DNA of 64,000 nt, taken from assembly GCA_963849325.1 (NCBI GenBank), contig CAWKHF010000012.1, forward strand, positions 320,001 through 384,000. The letters are read 5' to 3'. The position numbers and the translations under genes are program-made. Under the pieces are notes generated by a model, which ran no database searches, had not been told where the DNA came from, and saw nothing but the letters and a program-made list of their open reading frames with translations. This DNA is from an uncultured Planctomycetota bacterium (GTDB taxonomy: Bacteria > Planctomycetota > Planctomycetia > Gemmatales > Gemmataceae). Shown piece by piece: positions 8,780 through 63,316 of the stretch; positions within the stretch are counted from its first letter, which is position 1; each line of letters starts with the position of its first letter.

Positions 8780-9519
8780 CTAGCCCTGCCATTGCTTGAC
8801 GATGCTGAGCAGGGCGATCGCCGACGACCACACGACGCCGGCCAGCCCCGCCGTCACGCCGGTCATGGCCAGTCCCCTTCCGGCCAGGTGTGCCTTGCCG
8901 TCGATCTGCCGCAACGCCAGCCAACCGAGGACCAGCTCGCCGCTCGCCAGGACCAGGGCGATCAGACAAAATACCAGCGCCACGACGACCCCATTCTCCA
9001 GGGTCATGTAGACACCGATGGCCATGAAGGTCAGGAACAGGCTGACCACGGTGCTGACCAGAGCGAGGATGAAGGCGAGGAGGGCGAGCGGCGCCAGGCG
9101 GGCCGGCCGACTCAGGCCGCGGACGCGGAAGTTCTTGCACGGCCCGCACAGTGTCTGCCCTTGCAATGCGACCACACAGGCGGAGCAAAACGAGGCGTGG
9201 CAGGCGTCGCAGGTCGCTTCCCTGGGCGTCTCGTCGTGGTTGAGACAGTAAGCGGGGTTGGGACGGTGTCGGGCGCGCACGCGGCGCGGCGGCAAGGCTT
9301 CCGGCTCGGGCCAATCATCCTCGGCGGTCGGCCGGGGGTGCGCGGCCGAGACGACGGCGGCATCGGCTGGGCCTCCTCCGGTTCCGGCTCGGGGACCGTG
9401 CTCGACCACGGCACGCGATTGCCGTGGCCACATTCGCAGAAAACGAGCGTGCCGGACAGGTGCTCGGCCCGGCCGTGGCGCTTTCCGCATTGCTTGCAGG
9501 CGAACCAAATATGTCTCAT
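8780..9519 (-). CDS. Zn-ribbon/B-box zinc-finger membrane protein (DUF4190-like C-terminus); one frameshift; start codon supplied by the integrated element
   Basis: MRHIWFACKQCGK...FCECGH joined by a frameshift to CLNH...CDACHASFCSAC...CGPC and TM helices ending GRGLAMTG. Confidence 0.75.
9490..9507 (+). repeat. attL core direct repeat TTGCTTGCAGGCGAACCA
   Basis: Identical to 19116-19133. Confidence 0.9.
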
Positions 9520-9557: not shown

Positions 9558-11216
9558 ATGGGCGACATGCCAAGACGCGCGTACTCCTACCTTCGGTTTT
9601 CCCACCCCAAGCAGGCTACCGGGGACACCATCCGAAGGCAAGAAGAATGGACCGCGAGCCTGTGCCGGCGGCACAGCTGGTATCTCGATGACACCCTACG
9701 CTTTGCAGACAAGGGGAGGTCCGCGTTTCACGGCGGACTCAAGGCGCTAGGGCAGTTCCGCGACCTGGTGCGACGCGAACGCATCGCGCCCGGCTCGGTG
9801 CTCGTCGTGGAGGTGCTCGACCGCATCTCCCGCGAGGAGGTTGATGATGCTTACGACATCTTCCGAGAGATCATCCGGGCCGGCATATGGATCGCTACGC
9901 GGGAACCGGAGCGCATCTATACCCGCGAGACGTGTGCTGGGAACATGCTCAATCTGCTGGAACCGCTCTTCATCTTTGCACGTGCCCACGATGAGAGCCG
10001 TGCAAAGTCTATGCGTATCCGGGAGGCGTGGGTGCATCAGCACCGAAAAGCGAGAGAGGAAAAGCAGCCGATCCAATCGCGGCCCCCTTGGTGGCTAAGG
10101 AAGGGGCAGCACGGTTATGAGTTGATCCCAGAGCACGCCGAGGCGATACGGCAGATGCGAACGCTCTGCCTATCCGGGCACGGGTACACCCAGACCGCAG
10201 GGGAATTGGCCCGGCGGCTGTTTCGCCCGCCCGGACGGAACTGGTGTATCGAGACCATCCGAAGTACGCTGAAATCTCGTCGCACGCTCGGCGAGCACCA
10301 GCCGGGACACAAGATCAAAGGCCGGCTGGTGCCGGACGGACCACCGATCCAGGGATACTACCCGACTATCTTCACTCCGGAGGAGTGGGAGGCCATACAA
10401 GGGGCGATCCAGCGCAGACAACGCAACAAGCCGGGACGGCCAGCGAAGGAATGCGCCAACCTCTTTACCGGGTTGGTATTCGAGGCGAATTCCCGGCTAC
10501 CTATGTCAAAGGGGTCCGCACGGCCGCAGCATGGGGGGAAGAAATACAACAGCCTCAAGTGTAGGAACGCTTATTATGGGATGCCGCTCTGCCGCGTTCC
10601 CTACGAGTCGCGTAGGGGACAGCCGGGATTTGAGGGGTGCGTGTTAGACACCATCGCGATGCTACGTCCCCAGGACGTGCTTGACGACGAGCGGCGATCC
10701 GACGAGCGGGAGCACCGCATCGACGCACTGACCAAACGTGTAACGGCCCTGGCACATCGCCGGGGACAACTGCAGGCGGCGGCAGCCGACCCAGAGCAGG
10801 ACGCCGCAGACATTCTACCAGCCCTGGCGACAGTACGTCGGGAGTTGGAAACGGCGGCGAAGGAGTTGAATGCCCTCAAGCTCGAAAGCCAGACAGGCCG
10901 GGCGGAAGCGCTAGCAGAGTGCCAGACGCTACAGGAACTGCGGCAACGCGCCCAGGGCGAGGAGCGGCAGGAGTTAGACCGCCGCATCAAGGCGGCGCTA
11001 CCGTCGATCATGGAATCCATCTGGATACAGTGCCAGAGAGTATCTACCCGGCATCAGATCGTACACATCCAGATATGGCTACACAGCGGCTCCATGCGCT
11101 ATGTGCAGATGCTGCCACCGAACCTCCACGGCGTCAAGCCGTGGCAGCTGGAGGAACACGACCTACGCAAGGGGCATTATGTAGGCGACGCTACAAATAT
11201 GGCCCAACCGGCGTAG
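9558..11216 (+). CDS. Large serine recombinase (resolvase + recombinase domains + coiled coil)
   Basis: AYSYLRFSHPKQATGDTIRRQ catalytic Ser motif, DKGRSAF, LVVEVLDRISRE, ESRAKSMR, YYPTIFTPEEW, NLFTGL. Confidence 0.93.
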   Translation: MGDMPRRAYSYLRFSHPKQATGDTIRRQEEWTASLCRRHSWYLDDTLRFADKGRSAFHGGLKALGQFRDLVRRERIAPGSVLVVEVLDRISREEVDDAYDIFREIIRAGIWIATREPERIYTRETCAGNMLNLLEPLFIFARAHDESRAKSMRIREAWVHQHRKAREEKQPIQSRPPWWLRKGQHGYELIPEHAEAIRQMRTLCLSGHGYTQTAGELARRLFRPPGRNWCIETIRSTLKSRRTLGEHQPGHKIKGRLVPDGPPIQGYYPTIFTPEEWEAIQGAIQRRQRNKPGRPAKECANLFTGLVFEANSRLPMSKGSARPQHGGKKYNSLKCRNAYYGMPLCRVPYESRRGQPGFEGCVLDTIAMLRPQDVLDDERRSDEREHRIDALTKRVTALAHRRGQLQAAAADPEQDAADILPALATVRRELETAAKELNALKLESQTGRAEALAECQTLQELRQRAQGEERQELDRRIKAALPSIMESIWIQCQRVSTRHQIVHIQIWLHSGSMRYVQMLPPNLHGVKPWQLEEHDLRKGHYVGDATNMAQPA

Positions 11217-11357: not shown

Positions 11358-11628
11358 GATGCACCCCCTCGGTAGCAATCATGCACGCGCCACACCGCGT
11401 TTTCGTCACCACATCCTACCAAGCCCAACCAGATTCTCAGGACCAACGCCGGTAACTGTCAAGCAAGGGTAAGAATCCGCAACGCTGGAGCACTCAACCG
11501 CACGACACGGCCTGCCCTAACAACCGGGCTTTCCACACGCTTGTCCGCAACTATCAGTTTGCACCCGACCGGGTAGGTTGTAGTCTTGGTGAGTCCTGAA
11601 CGCTCCCTTACCCACGGCAGAGGTTGAC

Positions 11629-11865
11629 ATGAAACCAAAATTGCTGACCATCGCCGAGGCGAGCAAGAGACTAAACGTGTCCGGCACCACGCTACGGCGG
11701 ATGATCCGCACCGGCGAATTCCCGCCGCCCGTTCGGCGGAACAGCCGCTGGGTCCGTGTCCCGGCATCGGACATCGAAAACTACCTGACCAAACTGGCGG
11801 AACGCCGCCAGACCGAGCAACCCCGACACCAGGCCGACACCACCGGCCGCCAATTGGAGACATGA
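11629..11865 (+). CDS. Excisionase/AlpA-like helix-turn-helix protein (likely recombination directionality factor)
   Basis: LLTIAEASKRLNVSGTTLRRMIRTGEFPPPVR...WVRVPASDIENYL; SD GAGG. Confidence 0.85.
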   Translation: MKPKLLTIAEASKRLNVSGTTLRRMIRTGEFPPPVRRNSRWVRVPASDIENYLTKLAERRQTEQPRHQADTTGRQLET

Positions 11866-11868
11866 ACC

Positions 11869-13114
11869 ATGAAAGCCCGCGTTTTGAAAGCCTTCGACGA
11901 TTGCAAGGCCGGCGACATCATCGACGTGCCGCGAGCCACGAGCAATTTCGCCGTGCAGAGAGGCGATTTGGAGGAAATCAAGGACGCTGAAACCCTACTC
12001 GCGCAAAAGGTCCGTCGCGCGATCGAAAGGCGCACGATCAGGAAAAAAGTCAGGTCGCTGGAGAGGCCCGCGTTGAGCTTCGGCCAGTTCCTGACCCTGC
12101 TAGCCAAGAGTGGAGGCCGCGACTTCCCCGCGCTCGCCCAGAAGGCGGCGCTGAACGAAGCGTCTGGGATCGAGGGCGGTTATCTCGCGCCACAGGGCTT
12201 CGCCAAAACTATTTTCCAGGCCAGCGAGCGGGGCCGAATCCTGCGCCGGAGCTACCCTATTCCCCACGAGCCACCGTGAAGAGTTAATCCCCTTGTGGGA
12301 TATGACAACTCCACAGACGGCCGGCACAACGCCGTTCTTCGGCGGGCTGAAATTGCAGTGGTACGAGGAAGGAGTCGAACCGGCCGAAAGTGAACCGGCG
12401 ACCAAGCAGCTGGCGATGGTCCCGAACTATCTAGGCGCGCTGGTGTTGGCCTATAACGCTTGGCTCGCGGACGCCGCTCGAGGGACCGTAGAAGCGTGGC
12501 TCTTGGCCCTGTTCGGAGAAGCCGTGGCGTGGTACGAGGAATACGGCTTCCTCCAGGGCAAGGGGGCGGGCCAACCGCTCGGCATCCTCAACAGCGGCGC
12601 AACCATCAACGTCAGCCGCGCTGTCGCCGGCGACATCGAGTTCGCCGACATTGGCGGGATGCTCAACAAGCTACTTCCGGAGTCCATCAATCGCTGTTTC
12701 TGGATGTACTCGCCGACCTGTCAAAGCGCCCTGATGCAACTCAAGGACGGCGCGAATCGGGCCGTGATGCTGCAAGTCGGAGCGACGCCCGCCGGACGCG
12801 GACAGTGGACCATCGCCGGAATCCCTGCTTATCCGACCGAGAAGTTGCCAGCCCTAGGGACCAAGGGAGACCTCGTACTCATCGACCCGCGCTGGTATGC
12901 AATCAGTGACTTCATAGCCGAGGAGGGACAGCCGGCGGGCGGCGGTCGTAGCCTAGCCGTAAGTTTCTCTGGCGAGGCGAGTCAGACGGTCTTCACCAAG
13001 AACCAGACGGTCTTTATGATTTCACAGCGCCTCGACGCACGGCCGGTTATCGACAGCCCCATCACCTTGCAGGACGGCGTGACGCAGGTGTCGCCGTTCG
13101 TGGCCCTTAACTAA
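11869..13114 (+). CDS. HK97-fold phage major capsid protein (~414 aa once one extra C near 12262-12265 is removed)
   Basis: GGYLAP, WYEEG..AESEP, FLQGKGAGQPLGILN, LMQLKDG, GIPAYPTEKLPALGTKGDLVLID, FTKNQTVF..QRLDARP, SPFVAL. Confidence 0.88.
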
Positions 13115-13240: not shown

Positions 13241-14215
13241 ATGAGCAGCCTGGCCGACGAAATCATTGCCGCGATGGAAGCGGGCGGAACCAAGAAGGAA
13301 CCCGCAACGTTCGACGAGGTAGACGCTTTCCATCTCCAAAACGAGGCCGAACAAGTGTTGAAGTACCTCCCGCTACTCGGACAAAGCGGCTACCTCGTCG
13401 AGGGCTGGTCGCACCTACTCGCCGGCTTCCCCCGCGTCGGCAAGTCCGAATTACTCTACGCCTGCATGGTCGAATGGTTACGAGCGGGCCAGACCATTCT
13501 CTACTTCACCGAGGAGGGCCGTGAGCTATGGCGGCAACGACTTCAGCGCCAACGAGTACCCGCCGAGGGATTACAACTGGTGTTCGCGCTCGGTGGCAAG
13601 TCCCTGGACCTCCTAACGCGGATGAGGAAGAGTGGGGAGCCTATCGTTGTGATCGACACCATCCGCAGCCTGCAAGTCCTGCCGGCCGACGAGAACGACA
13701 ACGCCGCCGTCGCCCGCGCCCTCGAACCCTGGGTGACTGCCGCACGCGAGATGAGCAAGACCCTGATTCTCAGCCACCATGCCCGCAAGGGAGGCGGCGA
13801 GCACGGCGAGGGCATCTCCGGCGGTCATGCCCTCTTCGGGGCCGTGGACGTGGCCCTGGAAGTCTGCCGCAGTACGACACCGGCTCGGCGGATCATCAAG
13901 GCCCATGCTCGCCTAATCCAGCCCGCCGACCTCCTCTACGAGCGGGACGAGGATGGCAGCCTGGCCGCTCTCGGCGATCCCAGCGGCGTCGGCCTGGCGG
14001 AAGTCGGCCGCCGCATCCTCGACGTGATGGATCACCAATGGGCCAAGACGGCCGACGTACACGACCGCCTGGAGGAACCCCGGCCCAGCGCGGAACAACT
14101 TCGCCTCGCTCTGGCCGCCGAGGCCCGCTGCGGCCGCCTGGAACGCGATCCGCCCATCAGCGTCGCCAACGTCCAGGGCAAGACCACTCGCTGGCGGCTC
14201 CTCGGAGGCGAGTAA
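13241..14215 (+). CDS. AAA/RecA-fold ATPase (RepA/SF4 helicase-like) with C-terminal wHTH-like region
   Basis: Walker A AGFPRVGKSEL, Walker B IVVIDTI, LILSHHARKGGG, ISGGHALFGAVD. Confidence 0.82.
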   Translation: MSSLADEIIAAMEAGGTKKEPATFDEVDAFHLQNEAEQVLKYLPLLGQSGYLVEGWSHLLAGFPRVGKSELLYACMVEWLRAGQTILYFTEEGRELWRQRLQRQRVPAEGLQLVFALGGKSLDLLTRMRKSGEPIVVIDTIRSLQVLPADENDNAAVARALEPWVTAAREMSKTLILSHHARKGGGEHGEGISGGHALFGAVDVALEVCRSTTPARRIIKAHARLIQPADLLYERDEDGSLAALGDPSGVGLAEVGRRILDVMDHQWAKTADVHDRLEEPRPSAEQLRLALAAEARCGRLERDPPISVANVQGKTTRWRLLGGE

Positions 14216-14332
14216 CTTCACTTCCCACCTATAGGAGAGACCCCCTTGTATGTGAGGTGAAGAAAAGTGAAGCGAAGCGTTTACGCTTCACTTTCTTCCC
14301 ACAGTCCCTCTCTTAAGGAGGGAAGTTCAGTT
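14214..14332. other. Large imperfect inverted repeat directly after the helicase-like gene (candidate replication origin)
   Basis: AAAGTGAAGCG/CGCTTCACTTT core; outer arms AACTTCACTTCCCACCTATAGGAGAG vs rc AACTGAACTTCCCTCCTTAAGAGAG. Confidence 0.55.
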
Positions 14333-14363: not shown

Positions 14364-14606
14364 ATGTCTGAACTGAAAGACGTTGTAAACAAACTGTGCA
14401 AAGAGCTTGACCGGCTCTTCCACACGCCGGACCTCTTGCACCGCGAGCAAGGTTATCCCAATCTAGCCGAACTTCTGGCTAGCATTAACGCAGGCATCCA
14501 CCGAGCCGCCGACGCTCTCGACCGGATGAACCCGCCGCCACAACCGCCGCCGTTCGTGCCGGAGGGCTTCACGGACGCGGAGTTGCTGGCCGGCAAGGTC
14601 AAGTAG
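14364..14606 (+). CDS. Hypothetical protein (80 aa, helical)
   Basis: SD GGAGG, clean ORF co-oriented with the element core. Confidence 0.65.
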   Translation: MSELKDVVNKLCKELDRLFHTPDLLHREQGYPNLAELLASINAGIHRAADALDRMNPPPQPPPFVPEGFTDAELLAGKVK

Positions 14607-15198
14607 TGTCCGTCCGCCGCACTCACGGCCCCAAGCGATGTCGTCCAGGCGTCGTTTCGGGGCCGATTCCTGCACCGCCAGCAGGCCAAGCTGCACCTTT
14701 CCTGTCGTCCCGCTGCACACCCTCGACAAAACCTCCACAACCGGCATCGCAGCCTTTTCTTGTCCATATACCGATCAAATGTTCACTAAAGCGATAAACA
14801 AGAGGAGTGAAGGTAGATCGTGTTGCCGGGATGGCCGCGTTTTCCGGGCTGGGAGGGTAGGTTGCGTCCGGCAGCTGGGAGGCGCGTGCGGGGGTGCGTG
14901 CGGCCCCTGCGCCGCCCTCCGCGTCCCGGCGGCCGTGGCCCGCACGGACGCTCTGGGCGGCTCCGGGCCTACGGTGCGCCGGGACGTATCCGCCGCCCCC
15001 TGCGGCCGTCTGTCCCGCTGCCCTCACGGCGACGGACAGACGGCCTGCGGGCGGCTCGGTGGTGCGTGTGTGTGTGTGTGTGCGGGGCTGTACGCCCCCT
15101 GGTGTCGCGCAGCGACACCGCCGTCGCTGCGCGACGGCTGCCGGCCCTTACAGGCCGGCGGGGGCTGCGGTGTGCGTGCTGCGGGACACATCGCGGTG

Positions 15199-15404
15199 AG
15201 ACCCTGCCTTGCGTGCCCGGCTGCCTGCTGCTGCCGGCCCAGGTGGTGCGCGACATCACGGCTGTTCGTGTTGATGGCCGGCAGCAGCAGGCAACTCGGG
15301 CTCGTGTGGGGCAGACCGTGCCTTGCGGGCGCACCGGCATCTGGCTGCGGCCCAGGTAGTGCGCGACATCCCGGTTGTTCGAGCTACGGCCGCAGCCAGA
15401 TGCC
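15199..15404. repeat. Two tandem 114-bp-period structured units: conserved leader and loop, different perfect stems
   Basis: Stems 15222-15239/15276-15293 (18 bp) and 15336-15352/15388-15404 (17 bp); loops 26/29 identical. Confidence 0.85.
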
Positions 15405-15543
15405 ACCACGTCTACATTCGGCAACCGCATCCATGCGGGGTTCGAGGCGGGCAGGACGCCCGCCAGCTGGCCCATGACGACGAGGATGCGGCTCCAGCAG
15501 ACCCAAGGCCACGGGTGGCCTTGGGCTGCTGAGCTTCCTACGG

Positions 15544-15757
15544 ATGCAGGGACGCAGCCTGCGGAGCATTGCCGAGGAGGAGGGGGTGAGTCAGGAACAG
15601 GTACGCAAGGATTCTCGATCCTGCTGTCAACCAGTTGACACCTGACCTACCACCCGCCCAGGTGCTCGGCAAGGACGGCAAGGCGTATCCGGCGGACAAC
15701 TCCGCACGCAAGCCCGCGCTACCCGGTCCCGTCGTGGACAACGCCGCCGCTCCGTAG
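15544..15757 (+). pseudogene. HTH fragment with GKDGKxYP motif (resembles the C-terminal part of phage ParB-like proteins); one frameshift
   Basis: MQGRSLRSIAEEEGVSQEQVRKD / LDPAVNQLTPDLPPAQVLGKDGKAYPA; absent from the ORF track. Confidence 0.6.
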
Positions 15758-16463
15758 TCGGCTCCTCAGCATTTTCTTATTTATAAGACCGCTAGCACCC
15801 GTGCTTGCCTATCTTCGTTCCGTTCCCCCACGTCATCACGCCCAGCCTTCCCGCTGTCACGCCCTCTCGTGTTCACCGCGTCGCGTCATGGGCCATCCTG
15901 GCCCATAGTCGCGTCGCGGCGGGCCATCCTGGCCCTCAAGCTGTGGGCGGGTGCCCCGCCCCTGTTTGTCTCCGCGTCACTCGCGGTCGGGTTGTGACGG
16001 TGTATCGTGACCCTACCCGTCCTGCTGCTACCGCCGTGCCCTAGCAGATGCTTACCCGGTTTCCACGGCGTCGTAAGACAGACTAGCCTATGAGGTCCGC
16101 AGAGCACACCCGGCCAGACAGAAGCATTTTGAGGTCGTTCGTGTCGTACTGGCTGACGAGTCGTCACGTCCTCCCCCGCCCGCGACAGATTCCGCCAGTG
16201 TCGCGGGCGGCCTTTTTGGCCCCCGCGACACTGGCGGCTTCCGCCCAGGGGGGCGGAAGTGCGGTAGTGCGTAACGGTGTGTCGTGCTGTGACGCTCAGC
16301 ACGTCGTCTCGCCCTCCCCCCCGCGTAAGAACGCCGCCGGAGCGCGGGTTGTCCCCGCGTCCGGCGGCGTCGCAGCCCTTGCAGGCTGCGAAGAAGCTAC
16401 CAGGCGACGTCGTGACAGCCCTATTCGATGCTGCGAGGTTGACGGGTCATCATGCGCTGCTCT

Positions 16464-16509
16464 TTTCTTTTCTTTTCTCTTTTGAGTACAAAAGAGAAAA
16501 GAAAAGAAA
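16464..16509. repeat. Perfect 21-bp pyrimidine/purine palindrome with 4-nt loop
   Basis: TTTCTTTTCTTTTCTCTTTTG-AGTA-CAAAAGAGAAAAGAAAAGAAA. Confidence 0.9.
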
Positions 16510-16587
16510 CAAAAGAAAAGAGAAAACAAAGACAGACACTCACACGCCCCAAGGGACAGGATGACGGTCAAACCCGTGAAATGATCG

Positions 16588-16760
16588 CGTTTTGTCCAAG
16601 TGCCCTAGGTGCTGTTGTAGCAGGTATGTCAAGGTAGGTTGATTAAAAGCAATTTTGCTGTCAGAGAAGTTGTACGGTCAATGAAACTAGGCAAAATTGC
16701 TTTTAATCATTCCACCTTGACTACCTGCTATTACATCATCAGGGGCACTTGAACAAAACG
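16588..16760. repeat. AT-rich ~70-bp imperfect inverted repeat with 32-bp spacer
   Basis: Arms 16588-16658 and 16691-16760, about 60/71 matched by hand, innermost 19 bp perfect. Confidence 0.9.
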
Positions 16761-17069
16761 GGTTAGACTTGCACGGGGAGGCGAGTGCGACCCGCCATTA
16801 CACGCCGGGTCGGAGAGGGAGGAGGAGGAGGAGGAGGAGTGGGGTGGGGGTGGCGCGGGCCGCAAGCGGCTCATATGTTCATGTGTTCATAGTTCATCGT
16901 GGGTCGTTGGCCGGTCTCCCCGCTGGGTGCCGCTGCGCTGGGCTGGGATGGGTGGTTACGGTCGGGGGCTGGGCGGCGGCCGCCTCCGGCGGCCGCCCGG
17001 TGTCTCCTTGTGCTCTCCGCCTTGTCCGTGTTTTTGTGCGGTTTTTGCGGGTTTTTCTGCATTTTCCTC

Positions 17070-17099
17070 TTGACAGCTACATGTCGTTTGTGGTAGAAT
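17070..17099 (+). promoter_or_regulatory. Near-consensus sigma70 promoter of the element's cargo operon
   Basis: TTGACA-N18-TAGAAT with TGn extended -10; helically phased T-tracts upstream. Confidence 0.75.
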
Positions 17100-17177
17100 C
17101 GCTGTCTGCAATGGCGATGGGGGGCGGTTGGCCCCGCCCCCCATCTAACCCGAACCCCGTGCTAGCGGAGTCGAGTC

Positions 17178-17507
17178 ATGTCTAAGGGTATCCGTTCGTC
17201 GTCGGTCTGTCTATTCCACATTACCCCCCGCCGCAATCTCCAATCGATCTACAAGTTCGGCTTGCTGCCGTGCTTCGCTCGGGGCGTGTTGCGTGCCGTC
17301 TGGCTGTGCTCGGCTTCCCGCCGCCGCTGGGCCGCCGTCCACGTCGAGGACCAAAACTGGACTTCGGACATCGTTGTCATCCGCCTCATCCTGCCGCGTG
17401 CCTGGCTCCGCCGCTTCCGTCGCGGCATCTGGCATTGCTCGCAGCCGATCCCCCCCTCGTGCATTGTGTCCGTCTCCGCCCCGTCCCCGCTGTCCCCCGC
17501 CGCCTGA
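17178..17507 (+). CDS. Small ADP-ribosyltransferase-fold protein (KptA/Tpt1 C-domain or DUF952-like)
   Basis: LFHITPRRNLQSIYKFGLLP, AVWLC, VVIRL, GIWHCSQPIPPSCI; SD GGAG. Confidence 0.6.
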   Translation: MSKGIRSSSVCLFHITPRRNLQSIYKFGLLPCFARGVLRAVWLCSASRRRWAAVHVEDQNWTSDIVVIRLILPRAWLRRFRRGIWHCSQPIPPSCIVSVSAPSPLSPAA

Positions 17508-17564
17508 ACTCTTGGCCCGCCCGATCCGCCGCCCAGCGGATCGGCCTTCTTGGAGTATTCGGAT

Positions 17565-17936
17565 ATGTCTACTCGTTCATATCGTCTGTGCTTGCGCATC
17601 GACAACGGCGTGGAACGCCACTACGCCGTCCGCCCGCTGGCAGCTGCCGACCTGGAAACGCCGTTCCTGTGCGGCTATGCCCTAACGGAACGCACGCAAA
17701 ATTCACACCCGACCTACCATGTCCGCCTTGCCGCCGATGGCATTGTCAACTGCTCGTGTCCGCAGTGGAACAAGGCCGAGACCTGCAAGCACGCCGACGC
17801 CCTCGTGGCCGCCGGCCTGCTGCCGGTGCGGCTCGTCGAAGTGCTCGCCGCCACCCGCCACTTGCTCGACCTCGCCGAAGCGAAGATCGCCGCCATGCCC
17901 AAGCCCCGATCCCGCAAGAAGAAGACGGACAACTGA
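17565..17936 (+). CDS. SWIM zinc-finger protein
   Basis: YHVRL..CSCPQWNKAETCKH (CxC...CxH); SD GGAG; basic tail. Confidence 0.8.
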   Translation: MSTRSYRLCLRIDNGVERHYAVRPLAAADLETPFLCGYALTERTQNSHPTYHVRLAADGIVNCSCPQWNKAETCKHADALVAAGLLPVRLVEVLAATRHLLDLAEAKIAAMPKPRSRKKKTDN

Positions 17937-17988
17937 TCGTCGCCACGCGGACCGGCCGCAAGGCCGGTCCCCTCGACACGGAGGAAAC

Positions 17989-18342
17989 ATGGCCCGACAC
18001 CGCAGACCGAACACCGCCGACGACCGCCGCCAGCTACTGGCCGCTGCCGCCGCCGTCCTCGGTGTCGCCGCCGACGCAGTTATTCTCGTCGCCGGCGCCG
18101 TCGAGATCGTCCGCCCCGAGCCGCAGCCGGTTCGTCCTGGCCGACTGCCCGAGGGCATGAGCGCCTACGATGCCGCCATTCTGGGGGCGCTCGCTGACAG
18201 GCCATTGTCAGCCCAGCAGATCGCCCACCGCAGCGGACACCGCCACAACAGCTACTTTCGTGGCCGTCTCGCCGCTCTTGTCGAGGCAGGCCACGTCCGA
18301 CAAACCCGCCGAGGGTACAGTCTCGGCGGGCCTGGCAGGTAG
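17989..18342 (+). CDS. Winged-helix DNA-binding protein
   Basis: AILGALADRPLSAQQIAHRSGH..SYFRGRLAALVEAGHV; SD GGAGG. Confidence 0.7.
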   Translation: MARHRRPNTADDRRQLLAAAAAVLGVAADAVILVAGAVEIVRPEPQPVRPGRLPEGMSAYDAAILGALADRPLSAQQIAHRSGHRHNSYFRGRLAALVEAGHVRQTRRGYSLGGPGR

Positions 18343-18416: not shown

Positions 18417-18635
18417 ATGCTAACCATCGAACGCCGCGCCTTCCTCGAAGCGATCGTGCTTGCCGCCCTCATCCCCAACTGGCAGCGAACCAACCCCTTC
18501 GAGCCACCCGAGCAGACCCGGCAACGCCTTGCCGTCGAGGCGCTCAAGATTGTCGATTCGTTCCTACGCGTGACCGGCGACGCGAACTTGCCGCCCCTCG
18601 GCGTGCCGGCCAACGACCCCAGCGTTCCCTTTTGA
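18417..18635 (+). CDS. Hypothetical protein ending NDPSVPF
   Basis: SD CAGGAGG, clean ORF. Confidence 0.65.
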   Translation: MLTIERRAFLEAIVLAALIPNWQRTNPFEPPEQTRQRLAVEALKIVDSFLRVTGDANLPPLGVPANDPSVPF

Positions 18636-18708
18636 ACGATCCGCTCCGCGCCCTCGGCGACGTTCGCCCAGGGCCGGGCGCTTCCCATCGCCCACGGAGG
18701 TTTGCACC

Positions 18709-19038
18709 ATGAAGAAGCTCGTTGCCGTCGCCGTAGCCCTCGCCGCCCTGGGCGCTGGTCGCGCCGAGGACAAGACCGCCACCCAGAAGCCCGACGAGCC
18801 AGCCCCGGTCATCGTCAAGACCCAGCTGCCCCGGTACTTCAAGCAGCTCGGCTTGACCGACAAGCAGCGGAAGGAGGTCTACAGGGTCCGTGCTGGCTAC
18901 GCCGCCAAGATCGCCAAGCTCAACGAGGAGATCGCTACCTTGCGGTTGAAAGAGAAGGGCGAGGTCGAGGGCGTTCTGACCGAGGCTCAACGGAAACGCC
19001 TCCAGGAGATGCGGGCCGGCTCCGATTCCAAGAAGTGA
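18709..19038 (+). CDS. Secreted small helical protein, Spy/CpxP (LTxxQ)-like
   Basis: Signal peptide; LGLTDKQ and VLTEAQ motifs; SD GGAGG. Confidence 0.75.
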   Translation: MKKLVAVAVALAALGAGRAEDKTATQKPDEPAPVIVKTQLPRYFKQLGLTDKQRKEVYRVRAGYAAKIAKLNEEIATLRLKEKGEVEGVLTEAQRKRLQEMRAGSDSKK

Positions 19039-19115: not shown

Positions 19116-19133
19116 TTGCTTGCAGGCGAACCA
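19116..19133 (+). repeat. attR core direct repeat TTGCTTGCAGGCGAACCA
   Basis: Identical to 9490-9507. Confidence 0.9.
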
Positions 19134-28731: not shown

Positions 28732-28804
28732 TACCCCCAAGGGGACTCGAACCCCTGTCTTAGCCGTGAGAGGGCTACGTCCTAGGCCACTAGACGATGG
28801 GGGC
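28732..28804 (-). tRNA. tRNA-Glu(CTC); CCA not encoded
   Basis: GCCCCCA/TGGGGGT acceptor, TAGCC-CTCTCAC-GGCTA anticodon arm, GGTTCGAGTCC T arm. Confidence 0.96.
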
Positions 28805-53186: not shown

Positions 53187-53271
53187 CGAGCGGCCCCAAC
53201 CGAGCCGCGACCGTTAGAGAGCGGGAGAAAGCACCGCTCTCTAACGGTCGCGGCTCGGTTGGGGCCGCTCG
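53187..53271. repeat. REP-like perfect palindrome (38-bp arms) between convergent genes
   Basis: CCGAGCCGCGACCGTTAG core; related copy at 61617-61670. Confidence 0.85.
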
Positions 53272-61616: not shown

Positions 61617-61670
61617 CCGAGCCGCGACCGTTAGCGGGGGCGTTTCCGCTCCCTCACGGTCGCGGCTCGG
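61617..61670. repeat. REP-like palindrome related to 53187-53271
   Basis: CCGAGCCGCGACCGT / ACGGTCGCGGCTCGG arms. Confidence 0.75.
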
Positions 61671-63230: not shown

Positions 63231-63316
63231 ATCAATCCGCGTTTAGCCGCGACGCGCAGCGGAGCGCGGGAGTGCTCTCGCGCTCCGCTGCGCGTCGCGG
63301 CTAAACGCGGATTGAT
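63231..63316. repeat. Long REP-like palindrome between convergent genes
   Basis: 38-bp inverted arms ATCAATCCGCGTTTAGCCGCGACGCGCAGCGGAGCGCG. Confidence 0.8.

Follow-up and report, generated by a model that had tools for sequence, protein, structure and literature searches.

A 9.6-kb integrated island in a planctomycete genome carries two head-to-tail units (15199-15425 of the window, the whole 64,000-nt stretch of DNA analysed here) that are diverged tandem copies of one ~113-nt module, with a GC-rich stem of 17-18 bp and a largely unstructured loop of ~35 nt. The units are non-coding, are found nowhere else in the genome and sit in a hairpin-dense spacer that separates the island's replication module from its downstream operon (Table 1). 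No known family fits them, and in general kind they are a hairpin module belonging to a mobile element's control region; as two copies in one genome, they cannot be called a new class. We tentatively favour a reading in which they belong to a structured transcript and the stem would display the loop.

Table 1. Coordinates of the two units, their parts and the surrounding island features in the window
Feature	Position	Strand	Basis or remark
Left 18-bp direct repeat (attachment core)	9490-9507		Longest word common to both ends
Large serine integrase	9558-11216	+	Pfam Resolvase + Recombinase; PHROG 95, E 6e-54
HTH_17 excisionase-family DNA-binding protein	11593-11865	+	Pfam, PHROGs; TIGR01764, E 3.1e-08
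HK97-type major capsid gene, two frames	11869-13114 (11869-12279, 12293-13114)	+	Pfam PF05065, E 7.5e-23
Rep-like AAA_25 ATPase, 324 aa	13241-14215	+	Pfam PF13481, E 9.4e-15
Iteron-like inverted repeats CTTCAC/GTGAAG	14216-14296		Directly 3′ of the rep stop; probable origin
Small ORF after rep	14364-14606	+	
Non-coding hairpin-dense spacer, ~2.5 kb	14607-17177		Between rep module and downstream operon; contains the units
Upstream flanking hairpins	15104-15163		15120-15163 88.6% identical to G104 (blastn)
Unit 1	15199-15312	+	114 nt; repeat comparison; covariance model R1 score 135.8 bits
Unit 1 leader	15199-15216	+	
Unit 1 spacer	15217-15221	+	5 nt
Unit 1 5′ arm	15222-15239	+	18 nt
Unit 1 loop	15240-15275	+	36 nt; conserved core 15240-15268
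Unit 1 3′ arm	15276-15293	+	18 nt
Unit 1 tail	15294-15312	+	
Unit 2	15313-15425	+	113 nt; repeat comparison; covariance model R1 score 119.1 bits
Unit 2 leader	15313-15330	+	
Unit 2 spacer	15331-15335	+	5 nt
Unit 2 5′ arm	15336-15352	+	17 nt
Unit 2 loop	15353-15387	+	35 nt; conserved core 15353-15381
Unit 2 3′ arm	15388-15404	+	17 nt
Unit 2 tail	15405-15425	+	
Downstream flanking hairpin, bulged A	15497-15530 (15502-15512 with 15515-15525)		Repeat search
Near-consensus sigma-70-type promoter	17070-17099	+	11/12 hexamer positions, TG before second hexamer
Right 18-bp direct repeat	19116-19133		Two copies only in window

Repeat searches found the arms of unit 1 to be 100% complementary over 18 nt at a distance of 36 nt and those of unit 2 over 17 nt at a distance of 35 nt, which bears out a preliminary description of two tandem units with perfect but exchanged stems. 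As direct repeats, the leader recurs after 114 nt and the loop after 113 nt. When the units are compared segment by segment, identity reaches 16/18 in the leader and 26/29 in the loop core, so that 5 of these 47 positions differ; the 5-nt spacer, the lower stem, the last 6-7 bases of the loop and the tail share little similarity. The whole 35-36-nt loop had been described as conserved, which holds for the 29-nt core and fails for its last 6-7 bases. In the best alignment the two 5′ arms are separated by two substitutions and three indels, and every one of these differences is mirrored in the 3′ arm, leaving both stems perfect; all 35 pairs of the two stems are Watson-Crick and none is G-U. Pairing has thus been kept despite at least five arm changes, all of them mirrored, in agreement with the earlier proposal of either selection on structure or copying of one arm onto the other. 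Pairing is the only property common to the arms of both units, and since the arms differ between units, no protein could read both as duplex half-sites. The uneven conservation suggests that the leader and loop core are constrained, and these may be read by sequence.

Each unit, on either strand, adopts a more stable fold than 200 of 200 shuffled sequences. Fold energies are similar on both strands (-72.4 for unit 1 and -61.2 for unit 2 on the plus strand, -67.9 and -58.8 on the minus strand) and indicate no strand preference. The 571-nt region around the units is likewise strongly folded (z of -9.19 relative to shuffles). The isolated loops, by comparison with shuffles, fold like random sequence, with z scores of +1.29 and -0.38 (188 of 200 and 63 of 200 shuffles folding equally well); because the loops alone do no better than shuffles, the inner helix that the preliminary description had drawn within the loop is unsupported. 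Pairing between leader and tail is at most weakly above chance, being equalled by 12 and 68 of 300 shuffles on the plus strand and by 18 and 100 of 300 on the minus strand.

Perfect stems of at least 15 bp with loops of at most 80 nt occur at 1,513 loci of the 8.16-Mb genome (185 per Mb), and a perfect stem alone is unremarkable in this organism. The arms of 1,278 of these hairpins are repeated at least ten times (REP-like), those of 139 are repeated three to nine times and those of 96 are unique. Only 16 loci genome-wide combine a perfect stem of at least 15 bp with unique arms and a loop of 25-45 nt, and two of them lie in the island, one being unit 2 and the other a hairpin at 16640-16709; unit 1 is left out of this count only because its arm matches a host gene family. 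Among eight pairs of neighbouring hairpins in the genome, units 1 and 2 form the only pair with similar loops. In many of the repeat-family hairpins the arms are inverted arrays of repeated heptamers, such as AGTTCTG, AGGGAAT and CACGGATAA, that enclose loops of 25-45 nt, and examples lie in the window at 53187-53271, 63231-63316 and 61617-61670. The window also contains two 38-bp perfect palindromes.

The island has 18-bp direct repeats at its ends and is flanked by two minus-strand genes, an RDD-family gene whose stop codon faces it and a DUF4190 gene whose start does, whereas all of its own genes are on the plus strand. From its gene content it looks like a phage satellite, combining an integrase, an excisionase-like HTH protein, a split capsid gene, a Rep with iterons and the end repeats; phage satellites of the PICI or P4-like kind are small integrated elements that encode an integrase, replicate from an origin in their own replication module, carry a partial set of capsid or packaging genes and lack tail and lysis genes. 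The two pieces of the capsid gene match positions 46-129 and 156-380 of the TIGR01554 profile, and their counterpart in the related genome G104 is a single 417-aa ORF, so that the split reflects either a genuine frameshift, and with it decay of the island, or a fault in the assembly. The 17070 promoter heads an operon of o109, o128, o207 and o155, and matches of the four downstream ORFs are weak (SWIM, E 0.015; winged helix, E 0.006-0.02; small terminase, E 0.076). Small proteins of the island are encoded at 17178-17507, 17550-17936, 17719-18342 and 18574-19038. Looking for a helper phage or a shared cos site, we found nothing island-like elsewhere in the assembly at E <1e-3, the assembly being 84.7% complete. 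PADLOC gave no match to any of 24 ORFs and indicated no effector-like gene, and a blastn search of 14600-15900 against a phage database returned no match. Neither an HUH Rep nor a relaxase nor a primase was recognized among the island ORFs by Pfam, PHROGs or NCBIfam, with small ORFs of unknown family remaining.

No ORF in the spacer shows a coding GC pattern, and 15 of the 23 perfect hairpins of the 64-kb window fall within 14-18 kb. An AT-rich, 173-bp imperfect palindrome with a 19-bp perfect core and a 32-nt loop was seen by self-match at 16588-16760; beside it, upstream of the 17070 promoter, lies a 21-bp polypyrimidine/polypurine palindrome (16461-16509). The two palindromes are probably a regulatory or operator region of the island. 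A (GT)n microsatellite occupies 15066-15083 of the spacer, just upstream of the flanking hairpins.

Of 267 genomes of the order, five, the own genome counted, encode homologues of the island Rep (E ≤1e-40), the other carriers being G104 (65% identical), G107, G038 and G158, the last with two loci. Among viral contigs, a search with Rep alone gave no match, and a search with an alignment of six Reps found one distant phage. In this IMG/VR relative (L053, 2861-4930 of the contig piece), Prim-Pol, PriCT_1 and AAA_25 domains are fused in a protein of 620 aa, and the gene is followed by five iteron hairpins with a conserved stem and a variable loop and then by terminase genes. The island Rep corresponds to the helicase part alone of this protein, the iteron word is common to both, and positions 14214-14258 of the window are 78% identical to the L053 iteron hairpins. 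Inverted or tandem repeats of their own sequence follow rep in every relative. In the window, CTTCAC/GTGAAG occurs at 14216, 14262, 14272, 14286 and 14812 and is absent from 15199-15425. Because the iterons follow rep and are common to relatives, the origin probably lies at about 14216-14296, as judged by this comparison. The units themselves are ruled out as the replication origin, with the iterons ~1 kb away and no iteron word in either unit. An island in G158:C1 with the same Rep family has a tandem pair of its own (L038, 10580-10810), made of ~101-126-nt units that each contain a short terminator-like hairpin and a conserved 59-nt block, with a sequence unrelated to units 1 and 2.

The closest relative of the island, in G104, is syntenic for the HTH gene, the capsid gene, rep and the four downstream ORFs, and its rep is 70% identical in DNA and 65% in protein. 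The hairpins flanking the units are closer to G104 (88.6% and 96.9% DNA identity, the latter by blastn at 16335-16366) than rep is. Reading by eye, we find one stem pair in 15120-15163 that is changed on both sides in G104; the position, base and bulged A of the 15497-15530 hairpin are retained there, with a different sequence in the upper stem; and the gap between the flanking landmarks measures ~57 nt in G104 versus ~330 nt in the window. Both units are absent from the G104 island, in which the covariance model described below has no match, and on this comparison they are presumably either a lineage-specific addition or a loss in G104. The G104 spacer contains a histidine-rich ORF of 239 aa on repeated GTTCAYGC words (L036, G104:C23 10105-10824, minus strand), a candidate gene.

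We built a covariance model (R1) from units 1 and 2, which it aligns correctly, and looked for further instances, as had been proposed at the outset; none was found beyond the two units, and such an absence is one half of what the preliminary description had named as speaking against it. In the own genome R1 exceeds 21 bits at the two units only. Its matches in the genomes of four relatives stay at or below 28 bits with many non-standard pairs and are attributed to chance, and the scan, which covered 151 of the 252 genomes of the family, gave none at E ≤0.001 in the 150 other genomes under stricter filters. A search of all 252 family genomes for the loop pattern with up to three mismatches returned only the own genome and one chance match, which lies in a WD40-type coding region of G186 and has no hairpin. 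Larger collections were scanned with an exact degenerate pattern of 21 fixed bases, which misses diverged loops: viral contigs gave no match, and the single GTDB match (an Acidimicrobiia genome) and the single JGI metagenome contig match are both rejected as chance, each lying in coding DNA and forming no hairpin. Since no other instance was found, there is no independent covariation.

A coding repeat is ruled out by a non-coding GC pattern, arginine-rich ORFs and a lack of homologues. GC at the second codon position is 0.71-0.74 in ORFs that cross the units, versus 0.37-0.57 in the island genes; in the ORF at 15323-15532 it is 0.56, with a third-position value of 0.67 below the first-position value of 0.83. 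One ORF over the units would contain 22% arginine, and none of these ORFs has a match in Pfam, in PADLOC or, by tblastn, in the G104 island. With the loops 113 nt apart, a single frame is unable to read both.

Known classes of non-coding repeat and RNA fare no better. Rfam 15 at gathering thresholds finds a single match in the whole window, a tRNA at 28732-28804, and nothing on the units; at permissive E the best match over the units, to microRNA models, scores 26.5 bits against a threshold of 90 and is attributed to chance. REP, BIME and REPIN elements share with the units the form of non-coding perfect hairpins, and the host genome has ~1,280 such repeated-family loci, but REP-type elements have conserved arms and dispersed copies, whereas the units have variable arms, a conserved loop and only two adjacent copies. 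The loop motif occurs twice in 8.16 Mb, both times in the units, and the arm of unit 2 is single-copy, which rules this class out, including the scattered host REP family that the preliminary description had named as a counter-case. Integron attC sites are imperfect hairpins with extrahelical bases and conserved R and L boxes next to a tyrosine integron integrase; attC is ruled out for stems that have no bulges and lie 4 kb from the only recombinase, a large serine integrase. An intrinsic terminator is ruled out by the 35-36-nt loops and the lack of a following T run, and the units are not among eight predicted terminator-like sites; a sequence scan detected neither a promoter nor a terminator specific to the units.

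In type III toxin-antitoxin systems the gene of an endoribonuclease toxin is immediately preceded by tandem repeats of a short RNA. A ToxI-like array is ruled out here by the unit length of 113-114 nt and the lack of a ToxN-like gene, neither PADLOC nor Pfam detecting anything in 14.2-17.2 kb. The suggestion of a guide-like array is not supported either. Guide arrays of the CRISPR or TIGR type alternate constant repeats with spacers of unrelated sequence and come with an effector gene; here there are two units only, their variable parts are mutually complementary, and PADLOC matched 0 of 24 ORFs, which rules out a CRISPR or TIGR-type guide array. Nothing specific speaks for any of the earlier proposals of aptamer, recombination hairpin and guide array, and they are not supported; the one point for a guide-like reading is the host likeness of the unit 1 arm described next.

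One arm has a likeness in the host genome. A 17-nt stretch of the unit 1 arm recurs exactly in nine host genes (for example G000:C2:108445), at the GLLLPA codons of a prepilin-type N-terminus, within a family of at least 53 paralogs. Extended to 15223-15253, that is, the arm and the next 14 loop bases, the similarity to four paralogs reaches 31/34 with a one-codon gap, a score of 43 that is unreached by 300 shuffles (maximum 34), 524 other windows of the spacer (maximum 32) or 14,769 random genome windows (maximum 41). An nhmmer search of 22 kb with a profile of the paralogs, however, gives unit 1 an E of only 0.028, with an equal-or-better chance match inside rep, and the unit 1 arm is of low complexity (CTG repeats). 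Unit 2 scores 24 against the host, within the null range, its best match being a single 19/20 (E 0.07) in an unrelated gene, and the islands of the relatives contain no comparable prepilin-like segment. A decayed prepilin-type gene is ruled out, tblastn of the 53 paralogs against 14.2-17.2 kb yielding noise (best E 2e-4, low complexity). The idea of comparing the variable arms with the host therefore bore fruit for unit 1, whose arm and loop start resemble a host gene family, and not for unit 2; the likeness is suggestive only, a lead rather than a finding. Within the island, an ungapped search of both strands for complements to the loop core or the leader gave none above shuffles.

The main rival reading, possible though rather less likely than not, is that the units have no function and are a young duplication in a decaying island, their stems kept perfect by template switching (quasipalindrome correction); a few multi-base events would have altered the lower stem, the tail and the end of the loop, and the conserved blocks would only reflect the youth of the duplication. 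Template switching is documented (PMC8794818) both to create perfect stems and to repair existing ones, and the hairpins it makes resemble the units in their multi-base changes mirrored on both arms and in stems with Watson-Crick pairs only. The 35/35 Watson-Crick pairs of the units fit such a source, as do a host genome extremely rich in perfect hairpins, the absence of the units from the syntenic G104 island and of any copy from the collections searched, and the split capsid gene. Yet the divergence of 5/47 predicts ~3 uncorrected stem mismatches, and as none is seen, some force keeps the pairing. The differences are also sharply partitioned between conserved and diverged blocks, the flanking hairpins are conserved across islands, and only 96 of the 1,513 hairpins of the genome have unique arms, yet several of these lie within the 9.6-kb island. 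Template switching is moreover a mutational mechanism and not a function, and it leaves the conservation of leader and loop core unexplained. We consider it unlikely that the units are instead a single-stranded DNA signal like sso or ssi, in which hairpins on the displaced or lagging strand would present the loop to primase or RNA polymerase. RSF1010 has ssiA and ssiB on opposite strands, whereas the units are two copies on the same strand. The island Rep has an AAA_25 domain and lacks the primase domain of its phage relative, so that priming must come from elsewhere, and the spacer is dense in perfect hairpins. Origins of the ssoA type, as described in PMC5703833, have a conserved RSB within a folded, orientation-dependent element of ~160 nt; the likeness lies in a long folded single-strand element whose conservation is limited to short unpaired segments, the same pattern of conserved unpaired and variable paired parts as in the units. 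The island, however, has no rolling-circle initiator, nor an HUH protein, relaxase or primase among its recognized ORFs, and the units are two tandem copies, ~1 kb away from the iterons of the origin, that the G104 island lacks although it has the same Rep family.

Two further readings are much less probable. We think it very doubtful that the units are antisense or guide-like RNAs in which the arm and adjoining loop bases pair with the conserved 5′ coding segment of the expanded host prepilin-type family, the loop serving as seed or handle. P4 and P1 use loop-initiated antisense RNAs for mobile-element immunity, and IS10 RNA-OUT and the P4 CI and P1 c4 immunity RNAs resemble the units in having a stable stem that presents an exposed recognition sequence; the units differ in that the search for a complementary target in the island found none and in a candidate family that matches unit 1 alone. 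The exact 17-nt match in nine host genes and its 31/34 extension, unreached by the null sets, speak for such pairing, but nhmmer gives the unit 1 match only E 0.028, with an equally good chance match in rep, unit 2 has no significant match, perfect intramolecular pairing ties up the low-complexity arm, the islands of relatives contain nothing similar, and no effector gene was found. The corresponding picture of a two-member hairpin-RNA array, in which the constant loop would be the seed, the variable arm would specify the host target and unit 1 would silence ~50 prepilin-type paralogs, is just as improbable; if it were true, an entire family of proteins, possibly surface or receptor proteins, would be silenced together by unit 1. 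No more credible is a role as protein-binding repeats of duplex DNA like the crr of P4, in which Rep or a regulator would bind the leader and loop core and the inverted repeats would be incidental. The crr of P4 consists of two direct repeats of ~120 bp, and two direct repeats of ~115-120 bp away from the origin of a small satellite-type replicon are indeed what the two elements have in common, the units being ~114-bp repeats in a satellite-like island whose origin is ~1 kb away. The crr repeats, however, carry the iterons of the origin and are not defined by hairpins, whereas the units contain no CTTCAC/GTGAAG. The perfect complementarity of differing arms would go unexplained, and the units are absent from G104 despite the same Rep family.

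We return to the structured transcript, to which we give somewhat less than even credence. A gap of 35-36 nt between the arms makes cruciform extrusion from duplex DNA unlikely, and loops of this length would thus leave the structure in need of a single strand, either RNA or DNA during replication or packaging. The structure would form in such a strand, most likely a plus-strand read-through or non-coding transcript, given that every island gene lies on the plus strand; the stem would then hold out the conserved loop to a sequence-specific partner, which might be another nucleic acid or a protein encoded by the island or by its helper. Paired changes would keep the stems complementary, and template switching in replication could produce these in one step. 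A transcript module is favoured by the plus-strand orientation of the genes, the strongly structured spacer and stretches that are better conserved than rep; the units may act as RNA, with the loop as a recognition site and a role in the control of the island. Against a transcript module stand the lack of strand preference and of a promoter or terminator specific to the units, their dispensability in G104 and their uniqueness in the collections searched, the possible decay of the island and the fact that no partner of the loop was found, and stems without wobble pairs fit copying at the DNA level at least as well as selection on RNA.

In a genome of ~1,500 hairpins, mirrored changes in two copies cannot separate selection on structure from template switching. 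Should the units indeed work as signals in RNA or single-stranded DNA, they would offer a rare and clean example of a recognition loop borne by a stem that is free to evolve. Of more lasting value, probably, is the island itself, with a helicase-only Rep derived from a phage primase-helicase and an iteron origin common to both; a full-text literature search for phage satellites and Planctomycetes indicates that such an island type has not been described for planctomycetes.
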